DNA of 49,113 bases. Source: Candidatus Velthaea sp. Lineage in GTDB: Bacteria; Vulcanimicrobiota; Vulcanimicrobiia; Vulcanimicrobiales; Vulcanimicrobiaceae. The position numbers were made by a program, and so were the translations under genes. The DNA lies in assembly GCA_050012475.1 (NCBI GenBank), contig JBEKHC010000032.1:1-49113 (forward strand), given 5' to 3'. Below, piece after piece: positions 3,180 through 19,533 of this stretch. Under the pieces are notes generated by a model. The model was not told the DNA's origin. It ran no database searches and saw only the letters and a list, made by a program, of their open reading frames with translations. The first letter of the stretch is position 1; each line of letters starts with the position of its first letter.

Positions 3180-3669
3180 GACCAACGCTTTCCGTGACGC
3201 TGAATACAGCGCACCGTGATCGAGCCTCTGACGCAACTCCGGCAAGTTCGTAAGGGAAAATGCGGGTTTGACGGCGGGACTCCCACTCGCCGTACCCAGA
3301 ACGTTCGACTTTCAGCGCGGCTTCTTGGTTTCGGCACGGGCCGTTGAGCCCGCAACGAGCGGTGCCGTCTTTTGATCGCGAAGAGGAAGCCGCGAAATCG
3401 CGTCAGTCGAGAACCGACTCTATTTGTTTGACCAGCGTCCGCTAACGCCGGGCGATGTATCCGCCTTTTTCACGATGTTTGGAGCGGTGCACGAATGGTA
3501 TGGTGTTGGGAAGTTCGACTTTGACTCTCGGTCGCACCGGGTACGCGACATATGGCGGTAGCGGTCAAGCCCTGAGGAACTGCCGGTGCGAGCGGTCAGC
3601 GTCGCGCTGCCCTTCATCCAGCGCGATCCGACGGGACTGATTTTTCGCTTGGCGGGCACTGTGCGGAGC

Positions 3670-4359
3670 ATGTCGCTCAATCGCATCGTTGTCGCCGAAG
3701 ACGAAGCGCCGATCCGCGAATTGCTCGTGCACCATCTCGTGCGTGAGGGCTTTACGTGCGTCGAAGCAGCCGACGGTCCAACCGCTCTGCGCGCCGCACG
3801 CGCTTCGGCCGACCTCATGATTCTCGACGTCGGGTTGCCGGTCATGGACGGCTTCGACGTGATCCGGACGCTGCGCCGCGAAGGACGCGCCCTGCCGGTG
3901 CTCGTTCTTACCGCGCGCGCCGAGGAAATCGATCGGGTCGTCGGCTTGGAGATCGGCGCCGACGACTATGTTACCAAGCCATTTTCCCCGCGCGAAATCA
4001 TCGCCCGCGTTCGCGCCATCGCTCGACGTGCGGGTATGTCCGCGCAGGCCCAGCCGTCGCTGCTCTCGTTCGGCCGGCTGGAAATCGACGAGGCCGCGCG
4101 TGAGGTGCGCATCGACGGGGTTGATGCCGGGCTCAAGCCGCGCGAATTCGGGCTCTTGCTGGAACTCGCGTCGAACGCCGGCGTGGCGCTGTCACGCGCG
4201 ACGCTCCTGCAGCGCGTTTGGGGCTATGATTTCGACGGCGACGAACGCACCGTCGACGTCCACGTGCGCCGCCTGCGGCTCAAAATCGAGGAGGTTCCAG
4301 GGCTTCCGCCGCTGCTGCAGACCATCCACGGATTCGGCTATAAGTTTGCGCGCGGCTGA
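3670..4359 (+). CDS. OmpR/PhoB-family response regulator
   Basis: VVAEDE, ILDVGLP, GADDYVTKPFS, winged-helix VWGYDFDGDERTVDVHVRRLRLK, GFGYKF. Confidence 0.95.
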   Translation: MSLNRIVVAEDEAPIRELLVHHLVREGFTCVEAADGPTALRAARASADLMILDVGLPVMDGFDVIRTLRREGRALPVLVLTARAEEIDRVVGLEIGADDYVTKPFSPREIIARVRAIARRAGMSAQAQPSLLSFGRLEIDEAAREVRIDGVDAGLKPREFGLLLELASNAGVALSRATLLQRVWGYDFDGDERTVDVHVRRLRLKIEEVPGLPPLLQTIHGFGYKFARG

Positions 4360-5524
4360 GCGCTCCGCTCGGCCGATCGCGATAGCGGCGCTGCACCGGC
4401 GCTTGACGGTGCAGCGCGAGCCGGCGATTCCGCTGCTCGTCGTCCGGTTGCCGGCGCTGGAACGGACGGCTTGGCGCGAGGGTCTCCGCAAGGCGCGGAC
4501 GCTCGAGCGCCGGGCCGGCTCGGCTTTCGCGTCCGCTGCGGGGCGCGTGCTGCGGGCCGAGGACAGCATCGCGCACGACATCGGCAGCGACGTGTTCATC
4601 GCCGCCCTCACCGCGCCGACCCGCGCCGATGGCGCGGCACCGATCGCCGTCGACGCGCGCTCGGCGTTGGCGCGCATCTCGGCCAGCGTCGAGTCGGCGA
4701 CGCAACTCGAGGTCGAGACCGGCTGGACGGTGTTTTCTCCCGCCGACGGCGCGGATCTGGCCGACGCGGTCGCGCGCGGCCTTTCGCGCGGCGCTCAGGA
4801 ACGCGAACGCTACGCGTTCTTCAGCGCGATCGGCCACGAATTGCGAACGCCGCTGGCCTCGATTCGCGGCTATCTCGAAACACTGCTCGACGACGAGATC
4901 GACGAGCGCACGCGCACGCGATTCTTGTCGATCGCACACCAGGAGTCGCTGCGACTCGCGCGTCTGGTCGAAGGGATGTTTGAGATCTCGCTGCTCGATC
5001 TGCACACGACGCAGGTCGTGCGTTCGAGCGGTTCGCTCGACGTCGCGCTCGATGCGGCCGCGCTGGCCTGCGCGGCTAATGCCGGCGCGCGTTCGATCGC
5101 GCTACGGCGAGCGCCGGCCGTGCGCGCAGTCGTTACGCTCGACGCCGACCGGTTAGCCTTGGTGTTCATCAATCTCATCGACAACGCGATTAAGCACGGC
5201 CGCTCCGGCGGCACGATTGCGATCGGCGCGGACGCGAGCGACCCGGACTTTGCTTGCGTGACGATCGACGACGACGGTCCGGGCGTGGCGCGGACCGATC
5301 GCGAACACATCTTCGGCCTGGGCACGCGCGGCAAAACCAAGGCCGCTGGCAGCGGCATCGGCTTAGCGCTGGTGCGCCTGATGCTCGAGCGCGCGGGTGG
5401 CCGGGTCGACGTGGGCGACTCGCCGCTCGGCGGCGCGCGCTTTCGCGTCTATCTGCGCCACGACCGGCTGCAGCAGGGAATCGCGCCGCCGGCTCGCTCC
5501 GGCGAGGCGCAGCGAGCGGTCTGA
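4346..5524 (+). CDS. Soluble sensor histidine kinase with degenerate GGDEF-like N-terminal domain
   Basis: H-box GHELRTPLASIRGY, N-box NLIDNAIKH, G1 DDGPG, G2 GSGIGL; no transmembrane segment seen. Start (TTG 4346, overlapping the regulator) is uncertain. Confidence 0.88.
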   Translation: MRAAERSARPIAIAALHRRLTVQREPAIPLLVVRLPALERTAWREGLRKARTLERRAGSAFASAAGRVLRAEDSIAHDIGSDVFIAALTAPTRADGAAPIAVDARSALARISASVESATQLEVETGWTVFSPADGADLADAVARGLSRGAQERERYAFFSAIGHELRTPLASIRGYLETLLDDEIDERTRTRFLSIAHQESLRLARLVEGMFEISLLDLHTTQVVRSSGSLDVALDAAALACAANAGARSIALRRAPAVRAVVTLDADRLALVFINLIDNAIKHGRSGGTIAIGADASDPDFACVTIDDDGPGVARTDREHIFGLGTRGKTKAAGSGIGLALVRLMLERAGGRVDVGDSPLGGARFRVYLRHDRLQQGIAPPARSGEAQRAV

Positions 5525-5801
5525 CAATCTATCTCCGAGTCGCACAGCTGCCGGCGCTCCAACTTCCGGTCTCTTCGCGCCGGCGCTGTAAAACGGCCAC
5601 GTGATGTATCGAGTGTACGGATCGGAGCGGCCGGAATATCGAACCGCTTCCGTGTCCATTCAACCGCGGGACCGCTCCATCGGCGGCGCCAGGCGGCGGA
5701 ACGACCCAAAAATAGAGCGCTCACCGAGATAGGTTTGGCGCTCGACGTGAGCGCCGGCTGCTCGACGTGGTCGCTGATACTTTCGGGCTGCGGCCACGAG
5801 G

Positions 5802-7160
5802 CTACAGGATGTGCGGCGTGATATAAAAGACGACCTCGTCGTGCGTGTGCGAGCGTTGCCGGTTGCGGAAAACACTGCCCAGCACGGGGACGTCGCCCAG
5901 AAACGGCAGCTTCGTGACCGTTTCCGAATCGATATCAGAGAAGAGCCCGCCGAGCACGATGGTTTCGCCGTCGCGCACTCGCAGCGTCGAATCGACGCGC
6001 CGATTGGCCACGATCGGGAAGGCGTTATTGAAGCCTTCGATCTGCGAATATTCGGGGTGCAGCTCGGCGGTGATCGAACCGTCGTCGCCGATCGTCGGCG
6101 TGAGCCGCAGCTTCACGCCGATGTCGATATTGGTGACCGTCGGATAGCCGGTTTGCAGATTGGTCGTGACGACCGGATAGGTTTCGCCGACGAGCAGCGT
6201 GGCTTCTTTGTTGTTGAGCGTCGCGATGCGCGGCTGCGCCAAGATCGACGCGTGTCCGGTTTGAACGAGCGCGTTGAGCTGGGCGTTGATGACCAGCGAA
6301 CTGCGCGTGAGCAAATACGGCACTTGACCGAGCGCCCCCGACCCATAGCCCGCGCCGCCGACTTGAACGCCGACGTTGCTCGAATCGATGTGCGGCGCGA
6401 GGTCGGCCACCCGAACCTCGAACATCACCTGTTTGCCGGGATTGTCCAAGCTGGCCAGCAGCGTTCCGGCCGACGCCTGGACTTCGCGATCGCCGGTCAC
6501 GACGACGACGTTTTGGCGGTCGTCGGCGACGAGCGCGTTGTCGGGCACCGTTCCTTTGAGTGCCTTGACGGCCTCGCTCGCCTTGACGTTACGCAAATGA
6601 AAGGCTCGAAACGCGGTCGCGGCGCCGCCCCCGGCCGACGGCGCGTCGAGCGCCGTGATGAGCGTGCGGGCACGTTCGATCGTGGTGGCGCTGCCGCTCA
6701 CGATGACCGACCCGGTTCGCTTGTCGCAAACGACGACCGTTCCGGCCGGCAGCGCTTCGGTGAGCGAGGCTTTGAGCTCATCGGGTTGTGCGTGCGCGAG
6801 AGCAAAGACCGCCGTCTTGCTTCCCGAGGGCTGTCCGTCGTCGGGATACCGGCGGTTCATGACTGCCGCGTCGCCCACGATGATGATGCGTCCATCGCGG
6901 TGAGCTTGCAGACCGTAGGCTTGGGAGATGGCCGCCAGCGCCTCGTCGAAGCTGACGTCACGCAAGCGCAGGGTGACGCGCAGCGGCTTGATCGAACCGT
7001 CAGGGACGAGGTTGGTCCCGGATTGCATCGCCAGCAGCCGGATGACATCGCCCAAATCGGTATCGCGGGCATCGATGGAGAGCCGCGCCGGCTGGGCGCC
7101 CGACGGCGCATCGAGCAGCAGTGCCAAGCCCAAAGCGAACGCGAGAGCGCGGCGCTTCAT
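5802..7160 (-). CDS. pilQ: Type IV pilus secretin (PilQ/GspD family)
   Basis: Signal peptide; SIDARDTDLGDVIRLLA N0/STN-like start; N-domain repeats; QVMFEVRV, QPRIATLNNKEA, GETIVLGGL, KLPFLGDVPVLGSVFR. Confidence 0.9.
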   Translation of the reverse strand: MKRRALAFALGLALLLDAPSGAQPARLSIDARDTDLGDVIRLLAMQSGTNLVPDGSIKPLRVTLRLRDVSFDEALAAISQAYGLQAHRDGRIIIVGDAAVMNRRYPDDGQPSGSKTAVFALAHAQPDELKASLTEALPAGTVVVCDKRTGSVIVSGSATTIERARTLITALDAPSAGGGAATAFRAFHLRNVKASEAVKALKGTVPDNALVADDRQNVVVVTGDREVQASAGTLLASLDNPGKQVMFEVRVADLAPHIDSSNVGVQVGGAGYGSGALGQVPYLLTRSSLVINAQLNALVQTGHASILAQPRIATLNNKEATLLVGETYPVVTTNLQTGYPTVTNIDIGVKLRLTPTIGDDGSITAELHPEYSQIEGFNNAFPIVANRRVDSTLRVRDGETIVLGGLFSDIDSETVTKLPFLGDVPVLGSVFRNRQRSHTHDEVVFYITPHIL

Positions 7161-7693
7161 GGCCGCGCCGCGGGGTCGACGCCCAGCAGTTTGCCGTCGC
7201 GCAAGCGGACGCCGTCGAGGCCGATCGAAACGATCGTGACGCCGCCGACCCGGTCGCCCAGGCCTTTGATCTCGTGGATGCCCCCGGTGTCGAGCATGGC
7301 ATACGGATGCGGACCCGTGACGAGCGCGGACACGCGCGGTGCGGCTGGGTCGGGATCCGGTGCGCTGTCCGGCAGCGCCGGTATCGTGTCGCTGGCCAGA
7401 TTGTTGGGCAGCGGTTCGACGGTTTCACTCAGCTGCGGGCCGAATTGACGGTGCGGCAAACGAACCGGCAGCGTTGCAGCGAGCACGGCCGGCGGCGTGG
7501 GCTCGGCAAACGGATCGCGCACAACGAGCACCGGAGCGACCGGATCGGCAACGCTTTGAAGGACGCGCGGCAGCGGCGGCCCGGCCGTTGCGACGAGCAA
7601 ACGCTGCGGCGGGCTTGGCGTAAGCCCGATCGCTGCCGCGGCCCCGAGCGCCGACAGCATCGCAATCGCACTGCGACTACTGAGATCGAACAT
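7157..7693 (-). CDS. PilP/GspC-like protein
   Basis: Lies between pilO and pilQ; RDPF motif; C-terminal beta domain (YAMLD...GLGDRVGGVTIVSIG). Confidence 0.65.
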   Translation of the reverse strand: MFDLSSRSAIAMLSALGAAAAIGLTPSPPQRLLVATAGPPLPRVLQSVADPVAPVLVVRDPFAEPTPPAVLAATLPVRLPHRQFGPQLSETVEPLPNNLASDTIPALPDSAPDPDPAAPRVSALVTGPHPYAMLDTGGIHEIKGLGDRVGGVTIVSIGLDGVRLRDGKLLGVDPAARP

Positions 7694-8342
7694 TACTCGT
7701 ACCGTCCTCCGGGAGTTGGTGCAGGGCTACGCCGGCCGGAACATCGTCGGCCAGCCGCTGCACCATGAGGTGGAGCCGCGCCGTCAGCGGTCCCGCGTTG
7801 TTGCCGGCTGCGGGGCCCTCGCGCTCGATCGCGGCGATCTCGATCTGCAGCGGGAGCGGCGTTCGAGCGAGATCGCGAATCGTCGCGAGCAGGGCAGCGT
7901 AGTTACCGCGCAGCGAGATCTCCAGCGGGATCGACTCGAACGAGAATCCGCCATTCGCATTTTGCCCCGGCGCGCTGGCCGGCGCGGAGGCCGCCGCGGT
8001 GCCGCGCGCGTCGACTTGATCGAGGCTGACGTGACGTTCGCCGGCGATGCGCACGGCTGACTGTACGAAGCGCGCGACGAGCGTGGCGCGATCGGCGCGC
8101 AAGTCGAAGCTGCGCACCAGCTCGTCGGCGGCGCGCTGCTCGAGCTCGAGTTGCGGACGCTGGGCGGCGATTTGCGCATTGAGCCGGACGGCGTCGGAGA
8201 CGCGCGCCGTTTCTTCGTGTTGACGGTCGATCGCGGTTGCGAGCACGACGAACGACACGTAGTAGCCGGCGCACAGCACGACGATGCACGCCAGCCAGAA
8301 AAGACGGGCGTCAGCGCCCGTCGCGCGGCCGGTCGCCTTCAC
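7677..8342 (-). CDS. pilO: PilO-like alignment protein
   Basis: N-terminal TM helix, coiled coil, FESIPLEISLRGNYAALLATIRDL ferredoxin-like motif; operon position. Confidence 0.75.
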   Translation of the reverse strand: MKATGRATGADARLFWLACIVVLCAGYYVSFVVLATAIDRQHEETARVSDAVRLNAQIAAQRPQLELEQRAADELVRSFDLRADRATLVARFVQSAVRIAGERHVSLDQVDARGTAAASAPASAPGQNANGGFSFESIPLEISLRGNYAALLATIRDLARTPLPLQIEIAAIEREGPAAGNNAGPLTARLHLMVQRLADDVPAGVALHQLPEDGTSNVRSQ

Positions 8343-8896
8343 GGCCGCGTTTCGAGCCGCAAGACATAGCGCACCCGGGTTGCCGAAGAGCCGCCGTCGT
8401 CATGCAGCGATACGAGTTGCGGCAGCGTCGCGCGCGCGGTGTCCCGCAGTGTCAGCATCGCCGTGCCGACGGCGGCGGCGCGATCCGACGTGCCCTCGAG
8501 CGTATAATTACCGTTCTCGAAGCGCAAGGCGTGCAGCCACGTGTGCGCCGGGATCCGGTTGCCGATCCAAGCCAACTCGTTGGCCCGGTCCAGGCTCGCG
8601 CGCTGCAGCCCGGCGACATAGCCGATGAGCCGATTCTCGCGTAAAATGGCCGCCCGCAGCATCCCGCTTTGACGCACGGCGGATTCGTCGGCGGTCAGCC
8701 GGATAGCGGCGCGAGCGTAATGTTCCTGTGCAACGTGCAATCGGGTGAGCTGCACGAGCCCCGCCATCGCGACTAGCGTGGTGCTGAGGACCAACGCCGC
8801 AAGCGGCGTGCGAATGGCGTTGTCGATCGCGAAGCCGCTGGGTTGGGAATCGAAAACGTTGCGCCGCGAGCCGGCAAGATAGTTAAAGCGGTTCAC
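8339..8896 (-). CDS. pilN: PilN-like protein
   Basis: N-terminal FNYL (INLL-like) motif, TM helix, coiled coil, IPAHTWLHAL...LEG; GTGA overlap with pilM stop. Confidence 0.75.
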   Translation of the reverse strand: MNRFNYLAGSRRNVFDSQPSGFAIDNAIRTPLAALVLSTTLVAMAGLVQLTRLHVAQEHYARAAIRLTADESAVRQSGMLRAAILRENRLIGYVAGLQRASLDRANELAWIGNRIPAHTWLHALRFENGNYTLEGTSDRAAAVGTAMLTLRDTARATLPQLVSLHDDGGSSATRVRYVLRLETRP

Positions 8897-9846
8897 GGCT
8901 GCGTCCACAGCGCCAACCCGTACGCCAGGCACCAGTCGGGCGCGGCCGCGCGCAGCACATCCGGCGGAAGCGTCGGGGCAACGTCGGGGGAAAGCGCCGC
9001 CGGGCGCACGCGGACGCCGGTCGCGCGTTCGATGGCCGCCGGCAGGTCGCTCAAGCGCGATCCGTTGCCGACCAGCGCGATCTCGCGCACGTCACCGAAG
9101 CCGCCCGAGCGGCATTCGGCGAGCGCGTTCGCGACGTCCGCCACGAGCAAGTCGCGCGCGGATTCGCCGCAGCCCGCGATGCCGTGGGTGAGCTTGCGGC
9201 GTTCGGCGGTCGCCGTATCGCAGCCCAGGGCGCGCGCGATCGCTTGGGTGAACGCCGCGCCGCCGACGGAAAACCGCCGTCCGATCGGAAAGCTCCCGGT
9301 AAAGACGTGCAGCCGCGAGTCGTCGAGGCCGATGTCGAGCACCGCATCGACGGCGGGCAGCGCGCGCCGCAAGCCGAAGGCGTTGTTGTCGACGGCGCAA
9401 ACGCGCAGCTTGGCCGTGTGCGCAAGCGAGACGAGCGAACCGATGACGTCTTTGCGCACGACACCAATGACGGCATCACCTTCGGACCCGACCGGAATGA
9501 CCCGGACGACCGCTTCGCGGATCGGGTAGTCGACGAACTGGGTGGCTTCAAAACGCGCAGCGCGCTCTTGTTCCCCCCGGCGCATCACAGGAAAGTGGGT
9601 GCTGCGCAATACGGCGCGCGGTTCGCCGAGTCCAAAAACGCAGCGCCGCTCGCGGGTGCGCAGTTCGGCGACTGCGTCGGCCAGCGCCGCCGCCGGATCG
9701 TCTTCGAGCGGCCGAGCCGCGACCGCGACGAGTTCGGGCCGGCCGCTGGGCGCGCGCTGCACGAGTGCGACGCGCACCCGCGCCGTGCCGAGATCGACCC
9801 CGAGCGGAAGCGTTCCCCCGCGTCGCCGCGGCCGCGATGCGTTCAC
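8893..9846 (-). CDS. pilM: PilM-like actin-fold assembly protein
   Basis: LGVDLG, VLDIG, GGAAFTQAIARAL, LVGNGSRL, AYGLAL; GTGA overlap with upstream stop. Confidence 0.85.
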   Translation of the reverse strand: MNASRPRRRGGTLPLGVDLGTARVRVALVQRAPSGRPELVAVAARPLEDDPAAALADAVAELRTRERRCVFGLGEPRAVLRSTHFPVMRRGEQERAARFEATQFVDYPIREAVVRVIPVGSEGDAVIGVVRKDVIGSLVSLAHTAKLRVCAVDNNAFGLRRALPAVDAVLDIGLDDSRLHVFTGSFPIGRRFSVGGAAFTQAIARALGCDTATAERRKLTHGIAGCGESARDLLVADVANALAECRSGGFGDVREIALVGNGSRLSDLPAAIERATGVRVRPAALSPDVAPTLPPDVLRAAAPDWCLAYGLALWTQP

Positions 9847-10463
9847 CACAGCGGCCCCCACGCGCCGACGGTCAGCCCGACAGCGGCGCCGCCGGCGATG
9901 AACGGACCGAAGCGCAACGCATCGGTGCGTCGGGCGCGTCCGCAACCGATCATGGTGACGGCGTACAGCGCGCCCAAAACGAAGGCGCTTCCGATCGCTA
10001 CAATCGCCGGCTGGAGGCCGTAGCCCAAAGCGACGGCCGCGCCCAGCTTCACGTCGCCCAAGCCGATGCCGCGGCGTCCGGTGAGCAGATACAAGCTGCC
10101 CAGGGCGGCACCGACGATGGCCGCCGCGAGGAAGCCGTCCGGCGCGTGAAAGTTCAAACCGGCGGTGATGCACGAAACGGCGGCCATGATCGCCGACAAC
10201 GCGTCGAAGATGAACCCGGTGCGGGCATCGACCAGCCCGCACACTATCGCGCCCACCAGCGCAGCGCCGGCCGGCAGCGCGACGGACGAGGGATACAGAA
10301 CCGCGGTCCCGCCGGCCGCGGCCGCGCCGAGCACGAGCAGCCAGACCGGCAGCGTTCCCAACGCCAGCGCCCGCCGGCGCGCTACGTGCCGGGCAACGAA
10401 CCACAGACACGCCGCGTAGGCGCCGCCCGCGACACAAACGATGGTGAGCAATAGCGTCGTCAT
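9843..10463 (-). CDS. Prepilin peptidase (A24), peptidase domain only
   Basis: Polytopic; catalytic Asp motifs VDARTGFIFD and GLGDVKL; FGPFI. Confidence 0.85.
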   Translation of the reverse strand: MTTLLLTIVCVAGGAYAACLWFVARHVARRRALALGTLPVWLLVLGAAAAGGTAVLYPSSVALPAGAALVGAIVCGLVDARTGFIFDALSAIMAAVSCITAGLNFHAPDGFLAAAIVGAALGSLYLLTGRRGIGLGDVKLGAAVALGYGLQPAIVAIGSAFVLGALYAVTMIGCGRARRTDALRFGPFIAGGAAVGLTVGAWGPLW

Positions 10464-10993
10464 CGCAGCTCAGCCAGGGCCGCGCGTGCGGGAGCGAAGG
10501 CGGGATCGTGAACGAGTGCGACCGAGAAAAAGCGTCGCGCGTCGCGCACGTCGCCCAGCCGCCAGGCTACCCGTCCGGCAAGATGATCGTAGCGCGGGTC
10601 GCGGCCGGCCCTTCCGGCAGCGGCGAAGTCGTGTTCGGCCGCGCGCCAACGGCCTAGACGCTGTTCGGCAAGGCCGCGATCCGCGAGCAAGGCTGCATCA
10701 TCGAGCGTGCGCGCGAGCGCGTTGGTCGCCACGCCGATCGCGGCTTGCGCGTCGCCCGGCTGACGGCGCATCGCCAAGTAGAACGCGAGCCGGTCGGCGG
10801 CGCGGGCCGATTGGGGATCGAGTGTCAGCGCTCGCGCATAGTAGCGCACCGCCGCGACGCGGTCGCCGGCGCGCAGCGCATCGTCGCCGCGCGTGATCAG
10901 CGCGCTCGCGAGTTGTCCGTGAAACAATCCGCCGGCTAGGCTCAGGGCCACCGCGGCAATCGCGAACCGGCGCCCGAGCGGAATGGCGCTCAT
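10460..10993 (-). CDS. Exported or membrane-anchored TPR-repeat protein
   Basis: Hydrophobic N-terminus, then TPR-like repeats (AVRYYARALTLDP; LLADRGLAEQRLGRWRAAEHDF; FSVALVHDP); ATGA overlaps at both ends. Confidence 0.75.
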   Translation of the reverse strand: MSAIPLGRRFAIAAVALSLAGGLFHGQLASALITRGDDALRAGDRVAAVRYYARALTLDPQSARAADRLAFYLAMRRQPGDAQAAIGVATNALARTLDDAALLADRGLAEQRLGRWRAAEHDFAAAGRAGRDPRYDHLAGRVAWRLGDVRDARRFFSVALVHDPAFAPARAALAELR

Positions 10994-11667
10994 GCCAGCA
11001 CCGCGTAATACATGCCCAGCGCGAGCATCAAGACCGCGCTCACGATGGCCGGCCCTTGGCCCCGAAAAACATTCGGCGTCCAGCGGGTGACGAGCGCGCC
11101 GATTTGTCCGGTGAAGAGCAGCGGCAGCGCATGACCGGCTCCGAAAAGCGCCAGCAGCACCGCACCCAAGAGCGGCTCGCCGGATGCCGTCGACGTTGCG
11201 ACGACCGCTGCCAGCAGCGGCGTGCAGCACGGTGATACGACGAGTGCGCTCGACGCGCCGAGCAGAAAAATAGCGCCGAGCGAACGGGGCTGCGAGCGCG
11301 TGGCAGCGGCGGTGCCGTGCGCTTCGCCGATGTGCCGGTGAGGTTCGGCGCGCACGAGCCCATAGGCCCCGCCAGCGATGAGCGCGCCGGCTAGGATTAT
11401 GTCGATCGCGCTCGACGACGACCACAGCGTTCCGAGCAGCCCGCCGCCGAAACCCAGCGCGACGTACGCGCCGATCAAACCGGCCACGAACGCCAGCGTC
11501 GGGACCAGCGGCCGCCGGTCGTGCGCGGCGAGCGCGGCGATCGCCACGTAGCGCGGCGCAATGCACGGCCCGACGCTCGAGAGCACGCCGCCGAGAAACA
11601 CCAATCCGAATGCCGTCGGCGTGTGCGCGGTCAAGGCCAGCAGGGAGGCGGCGATCGGATCGATCAT
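10990..11667 (-). CDS. ccdA: CcdA/DsbD-beta family thiol-disulfide membrane transporter
   Basis: About six TM helices; redox Cys motifs GGVLSSVGPCIAP and SPCCTPLL; FGAGHALPL. Confidence 0.85.
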   Translation of the reverse strand: MIDPIAASLLALTAHTPTAFGLVFLGGVLSSVGPCIAPRYVAIAALAAHDRRPLVPTLAFVAGLIGAYVALGFGGGLLGTLWSSSSAIDIILAGALIAGGAYGLVRAEPHRHIGEAHGTAAATRSQPRSLGAIFLLGASSALVVSPCCTPLLAAVVATSTASGEPLLGAVLLALFGAGHALPLLFTGQIGALVTRWTPNVFRGQGPAIVSAVLMLALGMYYAVLA

Positions 11668-12191
11668 TTGGCGAGCAAACCCGCTCCGGAGGCGTATTCG
11701 ATCGATTTCGTGCAGCCTTGCGCCCCGCACAGGCCGGCGGAGGCTTTGCCCGTTCCGTCGTCTTTGTTCAATTTCGCGAGCGTCGAGGCCGCGTGCGTAC
11801 CGGGGCAAACGATGAGATAACTCTGGCCGTCGCCGGTCGGCTGCGTGAACGTGTACTTCGCGGGCACGGCACCGGGATCGGCCGGATCGCGCGGCGTGTT
11901 GTTCAGATACGTTACCGTCGCGGTGTTGAGCGCATCGGGGACGGCGCCGGGATCGGGGTAGCGCTGGTTGTCCGCATAGTACAATTCCATCGCGGTGGCG
12001 ATCGCGCGCAGGTTCGATTCGCAGGCGGACGTTTGCGCTTGAGCGCGCGCGTTCACGAAATTCGGAATGAGAATTCCGGCCAGAATCGCGATGATCGCCA
12101 CGACGATCATGAGCTCGATCAGCGTAAAGCCGCGTTCGCCGGCATGCCGATCGGGTGCACGCTGCGCGGAGTGTGTTTCGATCGGCCACAT
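11664..12191 (-). CDS. Type IV (pre)pilin
   Basis: Class III signal G|FTLIELMIVVAIIAILAGILIPNF with Glu5; four Cys in the head domain. Confidence 0.92.
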   Translation of the reverse strand: MWPIETHSAQRAPDRHAGERGFTLIELMIVVAIIAILAGILIPNFVNARAQAQTSACESNLRAIATAMELYYADNQRYPDPGAVPDALNTATVTYLNNTPRDPADPGAVPAKYTFTQPTGDGQSYLIVCPGTHAASTLAKLNKDDGTGKASAGLCGAQGCTKSIEYASGAGLLAK

Positions 12192-12227
12192 AGCCGCAGC
12201 ACTCCGAGTGCCCGTTGGCCCGCGCAC

Positions 12228-12932
12228 TTATGCCACTTTCCGCTGGAGTTTTCCGAGCGCCCGTTTGATGACTTTCGACACCTGGCTTTGCGAAAGACCC
12301 AAGCGCCGGCCGAGTTGCGCCTGGGACAATCCGGCGCCGAACGATCCTAGCACCGCCAGGCGCTCGCGTTCGGCCAACTCGTCGATTGCCGTGCGCAGCG
12401 AGAGCTGCTCGTCGACGCCGATCGCCGTCGTGCCCGATGCGAGCTCGCCGGTCGGCGAGCCGGTATAGGCTTCGAGCGACACGACCGCCCCGCCCCGGCG
12501 CAGGACCCGCAGCTCGTCCACGAGGGCGGCGTCGACATGCAGTTCGGCGGCGATCTCGGCCGGCGTCGGCGTCCGTGCCAGCCGCGAAGCGAGGATCTCG
12601 CTGACGAGCGCATAGCGCTTCTCGAGCGCGCGCAATCCGCGCGGGATGCGTATGATGCGTTCGTGATCGCGGACGTAGTGCATGAGCTCACCGACTACCA
12701 GCAGCCACGCGTAGGCCTCGAACGGAGTTTGCAGTTCCGCATCGTAGCCGTGCACGGCTTTGAGCAGGCCGATCGCACCGACTTGCGCCAAGTCGGCGCG
12801 GTCGATTCCGGCGCGCCCGAATTTTTTCGCGCCGCGCAGACACAAGTACCAGTAGGCGGTGACCAGCCGGTCGCGATTGCCTTGCGAACGTTCGGCCAGA
12901 TACGCCGCGAGGGCGGTTTCTTGCGGTGTCAT
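12228..12932 (-). CDS. SigB/SigF/SigG-family (group 3) RNA polymerase sigma factor
   Basis: Region 2 DLAQVGAIGLLKAV...FEAYA...GELMHYVRD...IRIPR; region 3 LARTPTPAEIAAEL; region 4 LSQAQLGRRLGLSQSQVS. Confidence 0.9.
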   Translation of the reverse strand: MTPQETALAAYLAERSQGNRDRLVTAYWYLCLRGAKKFGRAGIDRADLAQVGAIGLLKAVHGYDAELQTPFEAYAWLLVVGELMHYVRDHERIIRIPRGLRALEKRYALVSEILASRLARTPTPAEIAAELHVDAALVDELRVLRRGGAVVSLEAYTGSPTGELASGTTAIGVDEQLSLRTAIDELAERERLAVLGSFGAGLSQAQLGRRLGLSQSQVSKVIKRALGKLQRKVA

Positions 12933-14158
12933 TGTGCGACTTGTCCAATCAACGAATAGAGCGGAAGGAAGATCGAGAAGACGATGAAGGCGACCATGCT
13001 GCCGAGGATGACGATGAGCGCGGGTTCGATCGCGGCGGCAAGCGTCGCAATCGCAGCCTCGACGTCGCTCTCGAAATACTCGGCGAGCTTGAGCAGCATC
13101 TCGTCGAGCAGTCCGGTTTCTTCGCCCACCCTTGCGAAGGCGAAAAACATCGGGTCGAAAACATCGCATTGCGCGACGGCGTTGGCCAGCGGCTCGCCGG
13201 CGCGCAAGGCATGAGCGACGTCCCCGAACGCGCGCCCGAAGCGCGGACTTCCGGCGACGGGCACGACTGCGTCGAGGGCGGACACCAAGTCGATCCCCGA
13301 GCGCAGCAGCGTGGCCAGCATGCGGATGACCCGTGCCGCGATGGCCTTCTGTAAGAGCGGACCGATGACGGGCAGCCGCAGCCGCGCGCCGTCGATGAAC
13401 AGCGCGCCAGCTGGGTGGCGGCCAACGCGCACGACCGCGAATGCCAGCAGCGGAAGTCCAAGCGCGGCAACGAGCCAAGGCAGCGGTGCGGCCAGCCATG
13501 CACCCAAGCGCAGCAGAACGTGTGTCGCCAGCGGCATCTCGACGTGGAAGCTGTCGAAGAGTTGAGCGAACATCGGCACGATTTTCACGATCAGAAAAAC
13601 CATGAGCGACGTCGCGGCGAGCATGACGATCGCGGGATAGGCGAGCGCCGTCTGAACCTTTTTGCGCAGCGCCGATTCCCGTTCGAGTAAAACGGCGAGG
13701 CGCTCGATCACGTCATCGAGGATGCCGCCTGCTTCTCCGGCGGCAATCATCGCGACGTACAGCGGCGGGAAATCGGCGGGCCGGCGGCTCATCGCTTCGC
13801 TGAGCGGCGTCCCCTGTTCGACGTCGGCGAGAACCGAGCGCAGCGCTTCGGCCAGTCGCGCGTCGGCGGCCCGTTCGATCGTGACCGAGAGTGCCTGGCC
13901 GATCGAAACGCCGGCCCGCACGAGGGTTGCGAACGAGCGGAAAAATGCGCGCAAAGCGGTGTGTGAAACGCGGCCGATGCGCAGCTCGCGCGCGATCCGC
14001 TCGGCAAGCTGGTTCTCCGCGTCGACGGCGGTGACGAAGAGCGCGCGGCTGCGCAACAGATCGAGGACGTTGCGCGGTTGCGCGGCCTGCATCGAACCGC
14101 GCACGAGTTTTCCGTCGAGTGTTCGGGCTGTGTAGTGAAAGGTGCGGACTTGGGTCAT
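12929..14158 (-). CDS. pilC: Type IV pilus platform protein PilC (GspF family)
   Basis: FHYTARTLDGK, AGEAGG, ALAYP, IVPMF, GEETGLLD, IEPALIV. Confidence 0.93.
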   Translation of the reverse strand: MTQVRTFHYTARTLDGKLVRGSMQAAQPRNVLDLLRSRALFVTAVDAENQLAERIARELRIGRVSHTALRAFFRSFATLVRAGVSIGQALSVTIERAADARLAEALRSVLADVEQGTPLSEAMSRRPADFPPLYVAMIAAGEAGGILDDVIERLAVLLERESALRKKVQTALAYPAIVMLAATSLMVFLIVKIVPMFAQLFDSFHVEMPLATHVLLRLGAWLAAPLPWLVAALGLPLLAFAVVRVGRHPAGALFIDGARLRLPVIGPLLQKAIAARVIRMLATLLRSGIDLVSALDAVVPVAGSPRFGRAFGDVAHALRAGEPLANAVAQCDVFDPMFFAFARVGEETGLLDEMLLKLAEYFESDVEAAIATLAAAIEPALIVILGSMVAFIVFSIFLPLYSLIGQVAQ

Positions 14159-15240
14159 GCCGCGCCTCGAACGGGTTCGCGCACGTCGTGCGGGCGGCTG
14201 GTGACGGCTTGTGCTTCGCGCAGTGCAATCTCGCGCCGGGCGACGAGTTCGCACAGGTGGTGTTCGAGCGTCTGCATCCCGGCGCCGCGTCCGGTGACGA
14301 TCGCGTTGCGCAGCTGATGCGTCTTACCTTCGCGGATCATCGTGCGCACGCCGTCGGTTGCAATGAGAATCTCGGCCGCGCAGCGGCGGCCGCTGCCCGA
14401 GAGGCGCGGCACCAAGCGCAGCCCGACGGTGGCCAGCAAGACCGCCGCGAGCTGCGCGCGGATCTGGTTCTGCGCTTCGGGGGCAAAGGCGTCGACGATG
14501 CGATCGATCGTTTGCGCGGCGTCGTTGGTGTGCAGCGTCGCGAGCACCAAGTGACCGGTTTCCGCGGCGGTCAACGCCGCAGCCATGGTCTCTCGATCGC
14601 GCATCTCGCCGATCGAGATCACGTCCGGGTCGGCGCGCAGCACTCCGCGCAGCGCCTCAGCGAAGTTGACGACGTCGCGACCGACCTCGCAATGCGCGAT
14701 CGCCGAACGGATGGGGTCGTGCACGTATTCGATCGGATCTTCGATCGTGATGATGTTGCGTTCGCTGGTCCGATTGATGGTATCGATCAGCGCGGCGAGC
14801 GCGGTGGTCTTCCCGCTGCCGGTCGGTCCGGTAAAGAGCAGCAGACCCAACGGCGCGCCCGCGAAGCCGCCGATCGCGGCGGGCAACTCGAGCTGTCCGA
14901 GCTGTGGCACGCTCTGCGCGAGCAGCCGCACCACGACCCGAACGCCGCCGAGCTGACGGTACGCATGGATTCTGGCTGGCCCGATGTCCGAGGCGAGGTA
15001 CGCGGCGTCGGCGGTGCCGTGGTCCGCGAGGCGGTGCAGGGCGGCCGACCCCAGCGCGGCTTCGAGAAAGACCGCGATCGCCGCTTCGGGGAGCGGTTCG
15101 TCGTCGAGCACGATGAGCCGGCCGTCGATCCGCAGCGCCGCGCGGGCGCCCCCGCCGAAGTGGATGTCGGACGCCCGCCGAACGCGCGCGTTGCGCAATA
15201 GTTCGTCGATACGGATTGCGGCGAGCTGCACGTCCATCAT
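14155..15240 (-). CDS. pilT: Retraction ATPase PilT
   Basis: ASDIHF, Walker A GPTGSGKTT, TIEDPIE, DPDVISIGEMRD, AAETGHLVLATLHT, VRTMIRE (AIRNLIRE-like), GMQT. Confidence 0.92.
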   Translation of the reverse strand: MMDVQLAAIRIDELLRNARVRRASDIHFGGGARAALRIDGRLIVLDDEPLPEAAIAVFLEAALGSAALHRLADHGTADAAYLASDIGPARIHAYRQLGGVRVVVRLLAQSVPQLGQLELPAAIGGFAGAPLGLLLFTGPTGSGKTTALAALIDTINRTSERNIITIEDPIEYVHDPIRSAIAHCEVGRDVVNFAEALRGVLRADPDVISIGEMRDRETMAAALTAAETGHLVLATLHTNDAAQTIDRIVDAFAPEAQNQIRAQLAAVLLATVGLRLVPRLSGSGRRCAAEILIATDGVRTMIREGKTHQLRNAIVTGRGAGMQTLEHHLCELVARREIALREAQAVTSRPHDVREPVRGAA

Positions 15241-16679
15241 GCGCCGTTCCAGGCGACGACGCGGACGAGTTCGGCGAAACTGGTATCGCCGGCCAAGACC
15301 TTGGCGAACCCGTCGTGGAACATCGGCCGATAGCCCGAAGCCGACGCGAGCTGCGCGATCGTCACGCTCGAGCCGCCGGCGCCGATCGCGTCGCGCAGCG
15401 CGTCGTCGACGACGAGCAGTTCGTACACGCCCACCCGCCCGCAGTATCCGGTTTGCGCGCAGGCCCGGCAGCTGCCGGGAATCCACCACTGCGCCTGTTT
15501 AGTTTCGAGGCGCGCTTTGAGGTCGGCGGGAATGTCCGCCGCGATCCGGCAGCTTTCGCACAGCCGGCGGACCAGCCGCTGCGCCAGGATCGCGGTCAGC
15601 CCCGCGGCCAGGGACTGGCGCGCCACACCCAGTTCGACGAGGCGTTCGACCGTTCGCGGAGCATCGTTGCTGTGCAGCGTGGTGAACACGAGCTGGCCGG
15701 CGAGTGAAGCCGAGATCGCAACGCCGGCGGTTTGGGCGTCACGCATCTCGCCGACCATGATGACGTCCGGATCTTGGCGCATGAATCCGCGCAACGCGCT
15801 CTCGAACGTGACGCCGGCGCGCGGGTTCACGCCGACTTGGGTGACCCCGGGCACGCGCATCTCGACCGGATCTTCGACCGAACAGACGTTGTTGAGCGCG
15901 GCGTCGAGGTCGCCGAGCGACGCGTACAGGGTCGTCGTTTTCCCGCTGCCCGTTGGACCGGTCACGACGATGAAGCCCCACGGCGAGCGCAACAGCCGCC
16001 GATAGGTCGCGAGCAGCCTGGGCGGCATGCCCAGCGCGGTGATGTCGCAGCTTTGCGCGTGACGATCGAGCAGCCGAATCACGAGCTTTTCGCCGTCGAT
16101 GGTGGGCAGCGACGCAACGCGCGCGTCGATCGCGCGACCCTCGAAGGGAATCGTCAGCCGTCCGTCCTGCGGCTGGCGTTTGTCGGCGATATCCATTCCG
16201 GCCGACAATTTGATCCGCGAGACAAAGGCGTTGTAGCGGTCGGCGGCGATCGTTTCGAGCGGAACGAGAATACCGTCCACGCGCAAGCGAATCGCTCCGC
16301 CCGCTGGGTTCGGTTCGATGTGAATGTCGCTGGCATGCGCGCCGATCGCACGCACGAACATCGAATCGACGCTGCGCACGGTCGGGACGTCGGCAGCGCG
16401 CCGCTCGCTTAGCGTCGTGCCCGAAGCATCGCGGCCATATGCCGCAAAAAGGCGTTCGCGAATGTGTTCGCGCGGCATGCGGACCGGCTCGATGCGCAGC
16501 CGCGTGGCTTGGCGCAGCGCATCGAGCACGTTGCCGTCTTCGATATCGGGCAGCGCAACGGCGAGTTTTCCGTCGTGCAGCCAAAGCGGCAGGGCGTCGC
16601 AGCGAAACGCCAGCGTGCGTCCGACGCGCGCGAGCGCTTCCGAACTGCTTGCCGTCGCGGCGTTAGCAGCCATCGGCAT
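15237..16679 (-). CDS. pilB: Extension ATPase PilB (GspE/PulE family)
   Basis: ASDIHIEP, QPQDGR, GPTGSGKTTT, EDPVE, RQDPDVIMVGEMRD, tetracysteine CESC...CRAC, GRVGVYE. Start approximate. Confidence 0.93.
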   Translation of the reverse strand: MPMAANAATASSSEALARVGRTLAFRCDALPLWLHDGKLAVALPDIEDGNVLDALRQATRLRIEPVRMPREHIRERLFAAYGRDASGTTLSERRAADVPTVRSVDSMFVRAIGAHASDIHIEPNPAGGAIRLRVDGILVPLETIAADRYNAFVSRIKLSAGMDIADKRQPQDGRLTIPFEGRAIDARVASLPTIDGEKLVIRLLDRHAQSCDITALGMPPRLLATYRRLLRSPWGFIVVTGPTGSGKTTTLYASLGDLDAALNNVCSVEDPVEMRVPGVTQVGVNPRAGVTFESALRGFMRQDPDVIMVGEMRDAQTAGVAISASLAGQLVFTTLHSNDAPRTVERLVELGVARQSLAAGLTAILAQRLVRRLCESCRIAADIPADLKARLETKQAQWWIPGSCRACAQTGYCGRVGVYELLVVDDALRDAIGAGGSSVTIAQLASASGYRPMFHDGFAKVLAGDTSFAELVRVVAWNGA

Positions 16680-17006
16680 CCGTATCCAAGCAACGTGTCG
16701 CGGCCTTTGCCGTGCGAACGACAAGCGGCGTCAAAGTGATACCACCAAGAAAAGAACCATGTGCTCGAGGATCGAGCGAGCGCGAAGAGTGTGCGAATAT
16801 CATCGCTTGATTCGGCTGCGCTGCCAATCGTCGTCAGCCGCGTGCGGGCCGGGACATTGTGTCGCAGCGGGCCGAGGACTTCGGACGGTAGTGGATCGCC
16901 GGTTTGGTGGGAAGGCGGGGTTAATACCGGCGTGCAGCGTGATTCGGCGACGTACCGCGACCGGTTCAGCGGCGGGTGTCGAGCGCGCGAAAGGTGTGCG
17001 GTCCCG

Positions 17007-17201
17007 TCAGCGCCAGGTTATCGCGGGCGCTTCGGCGATTGCGCGGCCGTCGCCCAGCACGTGGTCGCAGTCGTAGAGCGGCGGGCTGAGCGTCTTGCCG
17101 CAGAAGATACAGGGACGATCGGGCTGCTTGGAGCGGCACAGATCGAGAGCGGCCATGAAAACGGCCGTGGCGATACAAAAAAGTCCGGCGCGTAAAATCA
17201 T
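17007..17201 (-). CDS. Putative small membrane protein with Cys/His cluster
   Basis: ATG start, hydrophobic first ~20 aa, CIFC...CDH; fills an otherwise empty gap. Confidence 0.4.
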   Translation of the reverse strand: MILRAGLFCIATAVFMAALDLCRSKQPDRPCIFCGKTLSPPLYDCDHVLGDGRAIAEAPAITWR

Positions 17202-17495
17202 AATGATGCCACAGTGTACGCGCGGGACGCGGGCTGCGCGTCTCGCGCTCGGCTCACGATCGCGAGGTAAAAGACCTAACGGTTCGTCGTGTTCGAATCG
17301 TCTCCGTGGACGCGCGGGAGGCCGGCACGTTTTCGTCGAGCGGGCGCGCTACCGAAGCGCCGCTCGAGTCGTCGTCGCTCGCGAAACCGCTGCCGCGACG
17401 GTTTACCGTCCTCACGCGCGCGAGGGACGATGTCCGAACAGCGATTTGTCCGCTCGTTCGCCGGACCTCTCGCGCGGCGAACAGAAGAACCGCCG

Positions 17496-17939
17496 ATGGA
17501 CACCATCGCGCACACCGAATACCTGACGTTGCATACCAAAAAGAAGTACGAAATCATCGACATCACCGATAGCGTCGAGCGGGTCCGCGCGGCCGCGAAT
17601 CTGCGCGATGGTTACGTGCTCGTCTCGACGATGCACATTACTTCGAGCATCTTCGTGAACGATCACGAACCCGGGCTGTGGTCGGATATCTTGGCCTGGG
17701 TCGAAAAACTCGCGCCAGCGGGACTCGATTACCGGCACCATCAAACTGGCGAAGACAATGGCGACGCCCACCTCAAGCGGATGCTGCTCGGGCATCAGGT
17801 GCTCGTACCGGTAACGAACGGCGCGCTCGATCTAGGCCCCTGGGAGCGCGTGCACTACGGCGAGTTCGACGGTCAGCGCCCCAAACGAATCCTGTTCAAG
17901 GCGCTGGGCATTCCCGCCGAGGCCCGCGTTACGGTTTGA
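17496..17939 (+). CDS. yjbQ: YjbQ/UPF0047 family protein
   Basis: EIIDIT, HITSS, YRHHQTGEDNGDAHLK, LGPWE, EFDG. Confidence 0.92.
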   Translation: MDTIAHTEYLTLHTKKKYEIIDITDSVERVRAAANLRDGYVLVSTMHITSSIFVNDHEPGLWSDILAWVEKLAPAGLDYRHHQTGEDNGDAHLKRMLLGHQVLVPVTNGALDLGPWERVHYGEFDGQRPKRILFKALGIPAEARVTV

Positions 17940-19533
17940 TTTGGACGGCCAGAATCTCGGGACTCGCTTGTTCGGCGAAGACCTTGAAATTGTCGAAAAA
18001 GAGTCCCGCGAGTTTCTTGGCCTGGACGTCGTAGGCGGCCGTGTCGGCCCAGGCTCCGCGCGGATCGAGCACGTCGCTGGGGACGTCCGGGACGCTGGTC
18101 GGGATCGAGAGCCCGAAGAACGGTTCGGTCACGAACCGGACGTCGTCCAGGCGGCCTTCGATGGCGGCGTTGAGCATCGCGCGGGTATAGGCGATCTTCA
18201 TCCGGTTGCCGACTCCCGGGGGCCCGCCGAGCCAGCCGGTGTTGACCAGCCAGCAGCGGACGGCGTCCTTCTCGATGTGTTCGCCTAACAGTTTGGCGTA
18301 GACCGTCGGATGGTGCACCATGAACGGCGCCCCGAAGCACGTCGAGAACGTCGCAACCGTGCCGACGACGCCTTTCTCCGTGCCGGCCGTCTTGGCGGTG
18401 TAGCCGGAGAGGAAGTGGTACATCGCCTGCGGCACCGATAGCCGCGCAATCGGCGGCAGCACGCCGAACGCATCGGCGGTCAGCATCACGACCGTCGTCG
18501 GATGCCCGGCCCGGGACCCCGGCACGACGTTAGGGATGTAGCATAACGGATACGCGGAACGGGTGTTTTCGGTCAACGCGGCTGAATCCAGATCGAGTTG
18601 CCGCGTTGCCGGGTCGATCGCGACGTTTTCGAGGATCGTCCCGAACTGGTGCGAGGCCGCCCAGATCTCCGGCTCCTGCTCGGCATTCAGCTTGATCGCC
18701 TTGGCGTAGCACCCGCCCTCGAAGTTGAACACGCCGTCGTTGGACCAGCCGTGTTCGTCGTCGCCGATCAGCGGCCGGCTGGGATCGGCCGAGAGCGTCG
18801 TTTTCCCCGTCCCCGAGAGCCCGAAGATAACCGCCACGTCGTCGGCTTTCCCGACGTTGGCCGAGCAATGCATCGGCAGCACGTCACGCAGGGGCATCAA
18901 GTAATTCATGATCGTGAAGACCGATTTCTTGATTTCGCCGGCGTATTCGGTACCCCCGATGAGGACCAGTTTACGGGCAAAGTTGATCAAGATGAAGGTC
19001 GAGGAGTTCGTGCCGTCGCGCGCCGGGTCGGCTTCGAATAACGCCGCGTCGAGCACGGTGAACTCCGGCGTGAAGCCTTCGACGTGGTCGGCCGTATCGA
19101 TCAGCAAGTCGCGCGCGAAGATATTCTGCCATGCCGATTGGGTGATCACCCGCACCGGCAACTGGAACTGCGGGTCGGCGCCGACGTAGCAGTCGAGCGC
19201 GTACAGCTCGCGGTCTTTGAGGTATGCGGTGACGCGCCCGAGCAGCGCGTCGAACTTCGCGGCCTCGAACGGTTTGTTGGTGGTTCCCCAATCGATGTGC
19301 TGCTCGCTGCTCGGTTCGCGAACGAAAAATTTATCGTGCGGGGAGCGGCCGGTGTGCTTGCCGGTCTCGACCACGAACTGCCCGTCAGCGCCGAGCAAGC
19401 CCTCGTTATTTCGGATCGCGTGCTCGTAGAGCTCCGAAACGCTCAGGTTGCGATGGATTTTCGTGGCGCTACTGAGACCGAGAGCGGTCATCTCAGCGTC
19501 GAAAGCAAGCGCGGAATTCGGCAAAGTGAGAAT
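17929..19533 (-). CDS. pckA: Phosphoenolpyruvate carboxykinase (ATP)
   Basis: TGRSP, YAGEIKK, MHCSAN, FGLSGTGKTTLS, LIGDDEHGW, FEGGCYAK. Start uncertain (ATT 19533, TTG 19524 or ATG 19491). Confidence 0.96.
   Translation of the reverse strand: MLTLPNSALAFDAEMTALGLSSATKIHRNLSVSELYEHAIRNNEGLLGADGQFVVETGKHTGRSPHDKFFVREPSSEQHIDWGTTNKPFEAAKFDALLGRVTAYLKDRELYALDCYVGADPQFQLPVRVITQSAWQNIFARDLLIDTADHVEGFTPEFTVLDAALFEADPARDGTNSSTFILINFARKLVLIGGTEYAGEIKKSVFTIMNYLMPLRDVLPMHCSANVGKADDVAVIFGLSGTGKTTLSADPSRPLIGDDEHGWSNDGVFNFEGGCYAKAIKLNAEQEPEIWAASHQFGTILENVAIDPATRQLDLDSAALTENTRSAYPLCYIPNVVPGSRAGHPTTVVMLTADAFGVLPPIARLSVPQAMYHFLSGYTAKTAGTEKGVVGTVATFSTCFGAPFMVHHPTVYAKLLGEHIEKDAVRCWLVNTGWLGGPPGVGNRMKIAYTRAMLNAAIEGRLDDVRFVTEPFFGLSIPTSVPDVPSDVLDPRGAWADTAAYDVQAKKLAGLFFDNFKVFAEQASPEILAVQIKP

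Follow-up and report, generated by a model that had tools for sequence, protein, structure and literature searches.

Does an alternative sigma factor encoded within a type IV pilus operon act on the pilin gene that follows it, on the whole operon, or also on genes elsewhere? This question is raised by a locus of Candidatus Velthaea sp. (contig JBEKHC010000032.1), contained in a stretch of 49,113 nucleotides that we analyzed as a whole and here call the window. Open reading frame (ORF) calls and family scans show 13 minus-strand ORFs in the locus, which succeed one another as pilB-pilT-pilC-sigma-pilin-ccdA-TPR-peptidase-pilMNOPQ. Overlaps occur at 11 of the 12 operon junctions, nine of them by 4 nt (seven ATGA and two GTGA) and the others by 16 and 17 nt, the overlap of 16 nt resting on the uncertain start of pilN. 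The sigma gene is joined to pilC by an ATGA overlap, and the sole gap of the operon, 36 nt, separates the sigma stop codon from the pilin ATG at position 12191. Thus, both the gene order with overlapping junctions and the coupling of sigma to pilC with the pilin next, as described in an earlier reading of this DNA (the sequence-only reading), were confirmed; moreover, since the 13-gene order, or close variants of it, recurs in the loci of relatives, it is not due to chance.

The same reading had proposed that the sigma factor drives the pilin or the whole operon, and the distribution of a conserved motif supports the first possibility but not the second. At the 3' end of the sigma gene we could identify a predicted promoter, GCATAA-N14-GGGCAC, the -35 element of which overlaps the sigma stop codon (Table 1). 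A GGGCAC(T) hexamer lies just past the sigma stop, with a GnnY element 15 to 17 nt upstream. As far as the excerpts of PMC8346170 go, SigB-class promoters have the -10 form GGG-x-A-x, the -35 form GNNT, and 12 to 15 nt between the hexamers, and the mapped Streptomyces examples include GCATAA-N14-GGGTAT and GTTTAC-N14-GGGCAC (Table 2 of that source).

The hexamer was sought in the 70 nt before each gene, with one locus per genome (L037 to L094) and dinucleotide shuffles for the expected values; the counts exclude loci in which the start was uncertain or the flank too short. Before the pilin, 33 of 39 loci have it, where 5.0 would be expected, and no other of the nine genes compared is enriched to a like extent. 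In particular, the highest count among them is found before the TPR gene (9/34 versus 5.6 expected), pilM shows 2/37 (3.1 expected), and the sense motif is not enriched before pilB (2/31 versus 3.4), sigma (3/58 versus 5.4), pilT or pilC. Since the motif is enriched before the pilin and not before pilB, the sigma factor probably drives the pilin arm, which comprises the pilin with its downstream genes, rather than the entire operon, in what would be a two-tier cascade.

Natural rearrangements serve as controls for the tie between motif and pilin. The region around the sigma stop carries the motif in 32 of 34 loci in which the pilin comes next and in none of the 5 in which a pilB/pilT block does; with no pil gene scored next, it was found in 3 of 16, and in one of these three, L057, the following gene is pilM. 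In some relatives the operon is split exactly after sigma, and among five split genomes searched the pilin was located elsewhere in four, each time preceded by the motif (4/4), as is likewise the case in G056. Furthermore, in L081 the motif stays beside the pilin, although about 500 nt from sigma.

At the other end of the operon, the region upstream of pilB contains a weak sigma70-like promoter candidate, which is not significant alone (1 site found versus 1.1 expected); similar TTG...-17-... elements occur at the same place in relatives. If sigma drove pilB too, and hence itself, the operon would be a self-contained module with a positive loop over all its genes, as might be suggested by the tight translational coupling throughout and by the autoregulation of SigF in Synechocystis (PMC2532724). 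We regard this possibility as highly improbable, since the sense motif is not enriched before pilB or sigma and no sense site recurs in a 450-nt scan of 46 loci, a sigma70-like promoter lies before pilB and such a promoter leads directly into sigma in a genus devoid of the pilus (see below), and the minor pilins are encoded elsewhere. In 13 of the 46 loci, an antisense copy of the sigma promoter stands some 165 nt ahead of pilB, where it and the sigma70-like promoter are arranged back to back; the antisense copy is absent from the window, and no constant gene lies behind it. Because the regulator gene described below is divergent from sigma in G013 and G083, the antisense copy may be a relic, or, more speculatively, it may be a negative-feedback site.

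The motif also extends beyond the operon. A near-identical promoter precedes a four-gene cluster on another contig (C20 of G000, locus L104), in which three genes show the prepilin motif and two match N_methyl, and which provides the minor pilin set for a type IVa system; copies before the minor-pilin operon were also noticed in G001, G002, G003 (with a variant -10), G007, G056, G151, G164 and G174. Comparison of 60 of 77 pattern matches from 10 genomes highlighted three recurring downstream genes: besides the minor pilins, these were a response regulator, seen in 7 genomes, and, in 2 genomes, a gene whose C-terminal part appears GGDEF-like by reading. A second promoter copy in the window stands before an OmpR-type response regulator coupled to a histidine kinase. 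Among the best 30 of 57 matches to regulator orthologs, from two families, 29 have the hexamer, in 26 cases exactly 10 nt before the start codon. In the SigF-dependent pilA1 promoter the GGG is found at -15 to -13 (PMC2532724), so a hexamer 10 nt before the start codon fits near-leaderless transcripts. The sequence-only reading's view of a self-contained module is thus not supported: the minor pilins lie on C20, the same promoter precedes the regulator-kinase pair, and the operon of some relatives is interrupted right after sigma.

A second regulator paralog (G000 C10:53820-54491, 62% identity) does not carry the promoter motif. The N-terminal domain of the kinase is GGDEF-like by profile and Atlas matches and does not contain the catalytic GGDEF motif.

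We regard the following cascade as probable and well supported by the comparative evidence; gene order, overlaps and the conservation, position and co-movement of the motif are observed, and the steps of transcription are predicted. A housekeeping-type promoter before pilB would yield pilB-pilT-pilC-sigma, translationally coupled, with some read-through possible. The sigma factor would then recognize promoters of the form GnnY-N15-17-GGGYAY, to judge from their conservation, and would activate the promoter located within the operon at the 3' end of the sigma gene, thereby raising expression of pilin-ccdA-TPR-pilD-pilMNOPQ, together with the minor-pilin operon on another contig and, in two families, the near-leaderless regulator-kinase pair. 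Filament subunits would thus be made only after transcription of the motor genes, as with sigma28 and flagellin.

A different interpretation of the motif, as the operator of a DNA-binding regulator or as an RNA element, with the position of sigma reflecting only inherited synteny, could appeal to the antisense copies upstream of pilB and the variety of genes behind them. We consider it hardly credible, because the motif is bipartite and strand specific, with a fixed spacer and a fixed distance of 10 nt to start codons, it matches mapped SigB-class promoters, and Rfam gave no match at positions 3000 to 18000 of the window or in the loci of 11 relatives. A riboswitch in the pilin leader was rejected on the same Rfam result. 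A look-up of positions 9800 to 14200 among RNA records listed no match, which counts neither for nor against expression.

Several observations weigh against a promoter read by the pilus-linked sigma factor. No motif precedes the pilin in 8 of 56 loci with sigma, including that of G001, from the same genus, and in the genus of the window the -35 element of the pilin overlaps conserved last codons of sigma. The counts come from related genomes and are not independent. The regulator of family f3 does not share the motif, which 1 of 14 scored sequences carries (15 fetched), and the full pattern is no more frequent across whole genomes than a reversed-pattern control, so that only cross-genome conservation was used as evidence for the regulon. 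In addition, G074 and G086 (98% complete) keep the regulator promoter while the pilus-linked sigma was not found in them. Finally, Streptomyces SigB paralogs cross-recognize GGGCAC promoters, including the GCATAA-N14-GGGTAT one, in the excerpts of PMC8346170, so canonical SigB could read the sites.

The latter points would be explained if canonical stress SigB, from the rsbV-rsbW-sigB operon, were the main reader of the motif or an additional one, the pilus-linked sigma being redundant there or having other targets; canonical SigB occurs in nearly all genomes of the class, and the promoter belongs to the SigB class. Nevertheless, we judge this unlikely, in that the promoter letters track the pilus-linked sigma. 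The -10 element is GGGTAT in other classes, with GEIRHYLRD in sigma region 2.4 (in five of the six loci whose pilin lies within reach, one of the five being a TGGTAT variant), GGGCAT in f3, and GGGCAC in family f1, with GELMHYVRD; the -35 element reads GCAT in the genus of the window, GAAT in G056 as well as G042, and mostly GTCY elsewhere. Canonical SigB, in contrast, is nearly invariant in regions 2.4 and 4.2, its own GTTT-N16-GGGTAT was found in 3 of 20 loci, and in f3 the two promoter types differ. Furthermore, the pilin promoter is present in G054 and G076, two genomes in which canonical SigB was looked for and not found, although their completeness of only 89 to 90% detracts from this point, and in G006 and G015 both the pilus-linked sigma and the pilin are absent. 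FliA/WhiG was rejected as a reader of the motif, its published consensus being different. We therefore retain the pilus-linked sigma as the probable reader.

As to the class of this protein, regions 2, 3 and 4 exceed their cut-offs (PF04542, PF04539 and PF04545) and there is no long region 1, which gives a group 3 layout. The top-scoring models are of the SigB/F/G type, and every specific cut-off is missed: the best, TIGR02980, gives 142 bits against a cut-off of 234, which the paralog at C83 passes with 288; PRK07408, presumably the cyanobacterial SigF model, gives 102.5 bits (cut-off 261); and TIGR02479 for sigma28 gives 82.8 bits (cut-off 189.6), and the protein stands outside the sigma28 clade. 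In deep-branching orthologs the best specific model is PRK07408, with 149 to 203 bits, below the same cut-off; with such scores, kinship with cyanobacterial SigF is a lead only. The host genome encodes a separate canonical rsbV-rsbW-sigB operon at C83, as well as a separate FliA/WhiG-like sigma plus flagellins, while no rsbV or rsbW adjoins the pilus-linked sigma, the region 2.4 of which reads GELMHYVRD and not GEIKRYFRD as in canonical SigB.

The sequence-only reading had suggested a phylogeny against SigB, SigF and FliA, which could be answered in part. In a quick-search tree of 124 rows (one of them, as in alignment A1, being locus L028 of G036), with a long-branch warning for FliA and RpoD, all pilus-linked sigmas split from canonical SigB, FliA and RpoD (SH-aLRT 92), on a side that also takes in relatives titled Armatimonadota; no row is a confirmed cyanobacterial SigF. 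The pilus-linked sigma thus appears to be a SigB/F-class protein with a clade of its own. The closest relatives bearing organism names are Vulcanimicrobiota (Eremiobacterota) records, including Ca. Velthaea, at 66 to 72% identity, and the host is grouped with this phylum. Sigma-GGDEF fusions occur among its close relatives (P0161, P0172, P0304, P0354 and others), one of them with an Armatimonadetes title.

The synteny search that had likewise been suggested showed that the arrangement is conserved. We searched 151 genomes of the phylum by the sigma profile and by PilC, the counts being lower bounds. Sigma lies directly 3' of pilC in at least 42 of the 47 genomes of the class with pilC among the matches listed, and in at least 15 genomes of other classes. 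As for the five exceptions within the class, contig ends interrupt the locus in G030 and G083, in G013 and G017 sigma has moved ahead of pilB, and in G063 (300 contigs) no pilus-linked sigma was found among the matches listed. The tallies include G022, G036, G183 and G190, and no conclusion depends solely on these or on G024, where sigma is followed by pilM (locus L015). In genomes of other classes, sigma and the pilin are often separated by further genes, glycosylation-like or otherwise. Of 80 metagenome loci found by means of an alignment of more distant relatives, 23 have pil-like genes in the vicinity; in several of these sigma immediately follows pilC, and L322 shows two pilins with the same promoter type. 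An insertion of sigma specific to this genome was rejected in view of the phylum-wide synteny; as judged from gene order, the arrangement is inherited throughout the phylum, occurs also outside it, and is no peculiarity of the host genome.

Some variants of the arrangement could also be noticed. In f3 and other classes (L113 to L120, L164 and L167), membrane genes, which we take to be glycosyltransferase-like, lie between sigma and tandem pilins, and most f3 pilins have a GGGCAT promoter of their own. A rearranged form (L060, L063, L070, L073, L009, L014 and L025) presents sigma, then a small gene presumably resembling a lytic transglycosylase, then pilB. In L105 (G001, same genus), an insertion of about 1.1 kb separates sigma from pilC. 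Seven low-GC contigs (L323, L324, L325, L326, L328, L329 and L330) carry two tandem sigmas of the pilus-linked kind, which in three of the contigs adjoin pilC.

The pilus is not the only context in which the sigma factor is maintained. In genus g34, all 25 genomes match the sigma profile and none of the 25 has pilC among the matches listed; at ten loci a sigma70-like promoter leads straight into sigma, and in the loci shown the next gene is one that we named chorismate-synthase-like from its sequence. Nonsynonymous divergence (pN) is below synonymous divergence (pS) in 45 of 45 pairs, with medians of 0.20 and 0.61, compared to 0.26 and 0.74 in pilus-bearing kin; g34 thus keeps sigma under purifying selection. 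The g34 regulator also keeps its promoter, and the g34 kinase does not have the GGDEF-like domain. Since sigma and the regulator promoter are both kept, at least one target of sigma outlives the pilus, and sigma is not only a pilus switch.

Among known systems, the two-component pilin regulator of Myxococcus and Geobacter is sigma54 dependent, and SigD of Bacillus subtilis, once made, drives the filament gene. The compactness that the sequence-only reading took as novel is not new, as single pil clusters with a pilin regulator inside are described for both former genera: in the excerpts of PMC6060248 and PMC5065972, pilB-pilT-pilC-pilS-pilR-pilA is a type IVa cluster with an internal regulator, placed in Geobacter between pilC and pilA, as here, but a two-component pair instead of a sigma70-family factor. 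Sigma control of the pilin is known as well, from SigF (PMC2532724 and PMC6495340) and WhiG (PMC12871210, consulted in part). According to the portions of the SigF sources available, the protein of Synechocystis PCC 6803 (PMC2532724) and Nostoc punctiforme (PMC6495340) is a group 3 sigma related to SigB, its regulon is very small and centers on the major pilin, and the -12/-10 element is of the GGG type, as here; the Nostoc pilB-C operon depends on a different sigma (PMC6495340), which resembles the situation of pilB here. Different from cyanobacterial SigF, the sigma in our study has its gene within the pilus operon, in coupling with pilC, its promoter would be GnnY-N16-GGGYAY and not TAGGC/GGTAA, and its predicted targets include pilD-pilMNOPQ, the minor pilins and a two-component pair. 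B. subtilis SigD is likewise an alternative sigma near the end of a machinery operon (fla/che; 10.1101/2025.01.06.631544, seen in part), but differs in sigma subgroup, promoter and organelle, and no equivalent of a FlgM-like anti-sigma was identified for the pilus-linked sigma. In Rubrobacter and Actinoplanes, following the excerpts of PMC12871210, WhiG is a group 3 sigma acting on type IV pilus genes and c-di-GMP enzymes, which differs in belonging to the sigma28 family, in its TAAA/CTCA-N16-GCCGA promoters and in its anti-sigma RsiG. The stress factors SigB/SigF of Bacillus and Streptomyces share domain layout and promoter class with the sigma described here (PMC8346170, in part), which differs from them in its neighborhood, its region 2.4 and the separate canonical paralog. 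As for a sigma gene within a pilus operon, between pilC and the pilin, no description of it was found in a literature search covering few subscription papers and no bioRxiv supplements.

To our knowledge, control of pilin synthesis without PilSR in monoderm-related and candidate phyla is largely unmapped, and the phylum considered here is common in poor soils. For the phylum as a whole, our analysis names the gene, gives the sequence of the promoter exactly and predicts a small regulon, and the prediction is testable in Vulcanimicrobium alpinus, a cultured member with pili and phototaxis. Its sigma ortholog, WPS_19040, is annotated "hypothetical protein"; the paper reporting these traits is silent on sigma in its main text, and its Table S8 lists pilB, pilT and pilC as WPS_19010 to WPS_19030, with pilD, pilM and pilQ elsewhere (PMC9758169). 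If our reading is true, the flagellar logic of machinery first and filament second would be built into a pilus operon, and a possible origin would be at hand for the odd cyanobacterial pairing of SigF with pilA, which is close to one-to-one. More tentatively, and with more doubt than confidence, one may envisage an old and so far undescribed family of pilus-dedicated sigmas following pilC across several Terrabacterial phyla, a type IV pilus counterpart of flagellar sigma28 with an origin in common with cyanobacterial SigF. In Vulcanimicrobiales it would close a feedback circuit through the leaderless regulator and the kinase with a degenerate GGDEF sensor, and would limit its own operon via the back-to-back antisense promoter at pilB.

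Table 1. Features of the pilus locus and its surroundings, in window coordinates
Feature	Positions	Strand	Basis
Predicted internal promoter GCATAA-N14-GGGCAC (-35 GCATAA 12233-12228, -10 GGGCAC 12213-12208)	12208..12233	-	Motif conservation; function inferred
Pilus-linked group 3 sigma, 234 aa, regions 2, 3 and 4	12228..12932	-	Family scans, comparison with paralogs, tree
Major pilin, prepilin G|F-x3-E, Gly codon at 12131, four Cys	11664..12191	-	Family scans
pilB, extension ATPase	15237..16679	-	Family scans
pilT, retraction ATPase	14155..15240	-	TIGR01420, 371 bits (cut-off 319)
pilC, platform protein	12929..14158	-	Family scans
CcdA/DsbD-TM, both Pro-Cys motifs	10990..11667	-	Family scan
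TPR protein, hydrophobic N-terminal helix, no lipobox, generic TPR fold	10460..10993	-	Family scan, structure model
Prepilin peptidase, short, A24 domain only	9843..10463	-	Family scan
pilM	8893..9846	-	Family scans, over Pfam cut-off
pilN, start uncertain, frame open to 8932	8339..8908	-	Over Pfam cut-off
pilO-like	7677..8342	-	Weak T2SS-M-type matches below cut-off
pilP-like	7157..7693	-	Position alone; no family match
pilQ, secretin (STN, Secretin_N, Secretin)	5802..7160	-	Over Pfam cut-offs
Candidate sigma70-like promoter TTGGCA-17-GATGAT, upstream of pilB	16799..16827	-	Weak; relatives' elements; inference
Second promoter copy, -10 GGGCAC 3654-3659, 10 nt before regulator ATG	3634..3659	+	Motif match
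OmpR-type response regulator, predicted regulon member, near-leaderless	3670..4359	+	Family scan, orthologs
Histidine kinase, degenerate GGDEF-like N-domain, coupled to regulator, convergent with pilQ	4346..5524	+	Family scan, profile and Atlas matches

With regard to the remaining operon genes, the type IVa set of extension ATPase, platform protein, G|F-x3-E prepilin and prepilin peptidase is present according to family scans. The PilT retraction ATPase is absent from type II secretion systems, and the curated PilT cut-off being exceeded argues for a retractile type IVa pilus and not for type II secretion. Judging from its genes, the operon is the retractile type IVa pilus operon of the host, retraction itself being predicted; neither a second close pilB, pilT or pilC nor any major-type pilin besides that of the operon was found in the assembly.

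All 35 loci with ccdA (in L037 to L094) encode a pilin with Cys36 and a second Cys at about position 106 to 117 (Cys36 and about Cys108 in the window), and the rearranged loci L060, L070 and L073, which do not have ccdA, encode a pilin devoid of Cys36; in families f2 and f3 Cys36 is present and ccdA is not in the locus. This distribution suggests that CcdA serves disulfide handling of the pilin. The prepilin peptidase of the window consists of 206 aa, with the A24 domain as its only match, and given this short A24-only form the pilins may go unmethylated. The TPR protein was considered as a PilF/Tgl pilotin and rejected, as its structure model (pLDDT 95.7) gave only generic TPR matches and a lipobox is absent; a weak PilW match is a lead only.

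Elsewhere in the window, a canonical-looking GTTT-N16-GGGTAC stands before an ORF at position 29860 (plus strand), possibly a SigB target. By reading of the sequence, positions 1 to 2071 (plus strand) contain a kinase fragment followed in our reading by ORFs of receiver, PP2C-like and anti-sigma-like type; a frame change near 900 to 1200 seems to divide the receiver and phosphatase parts.

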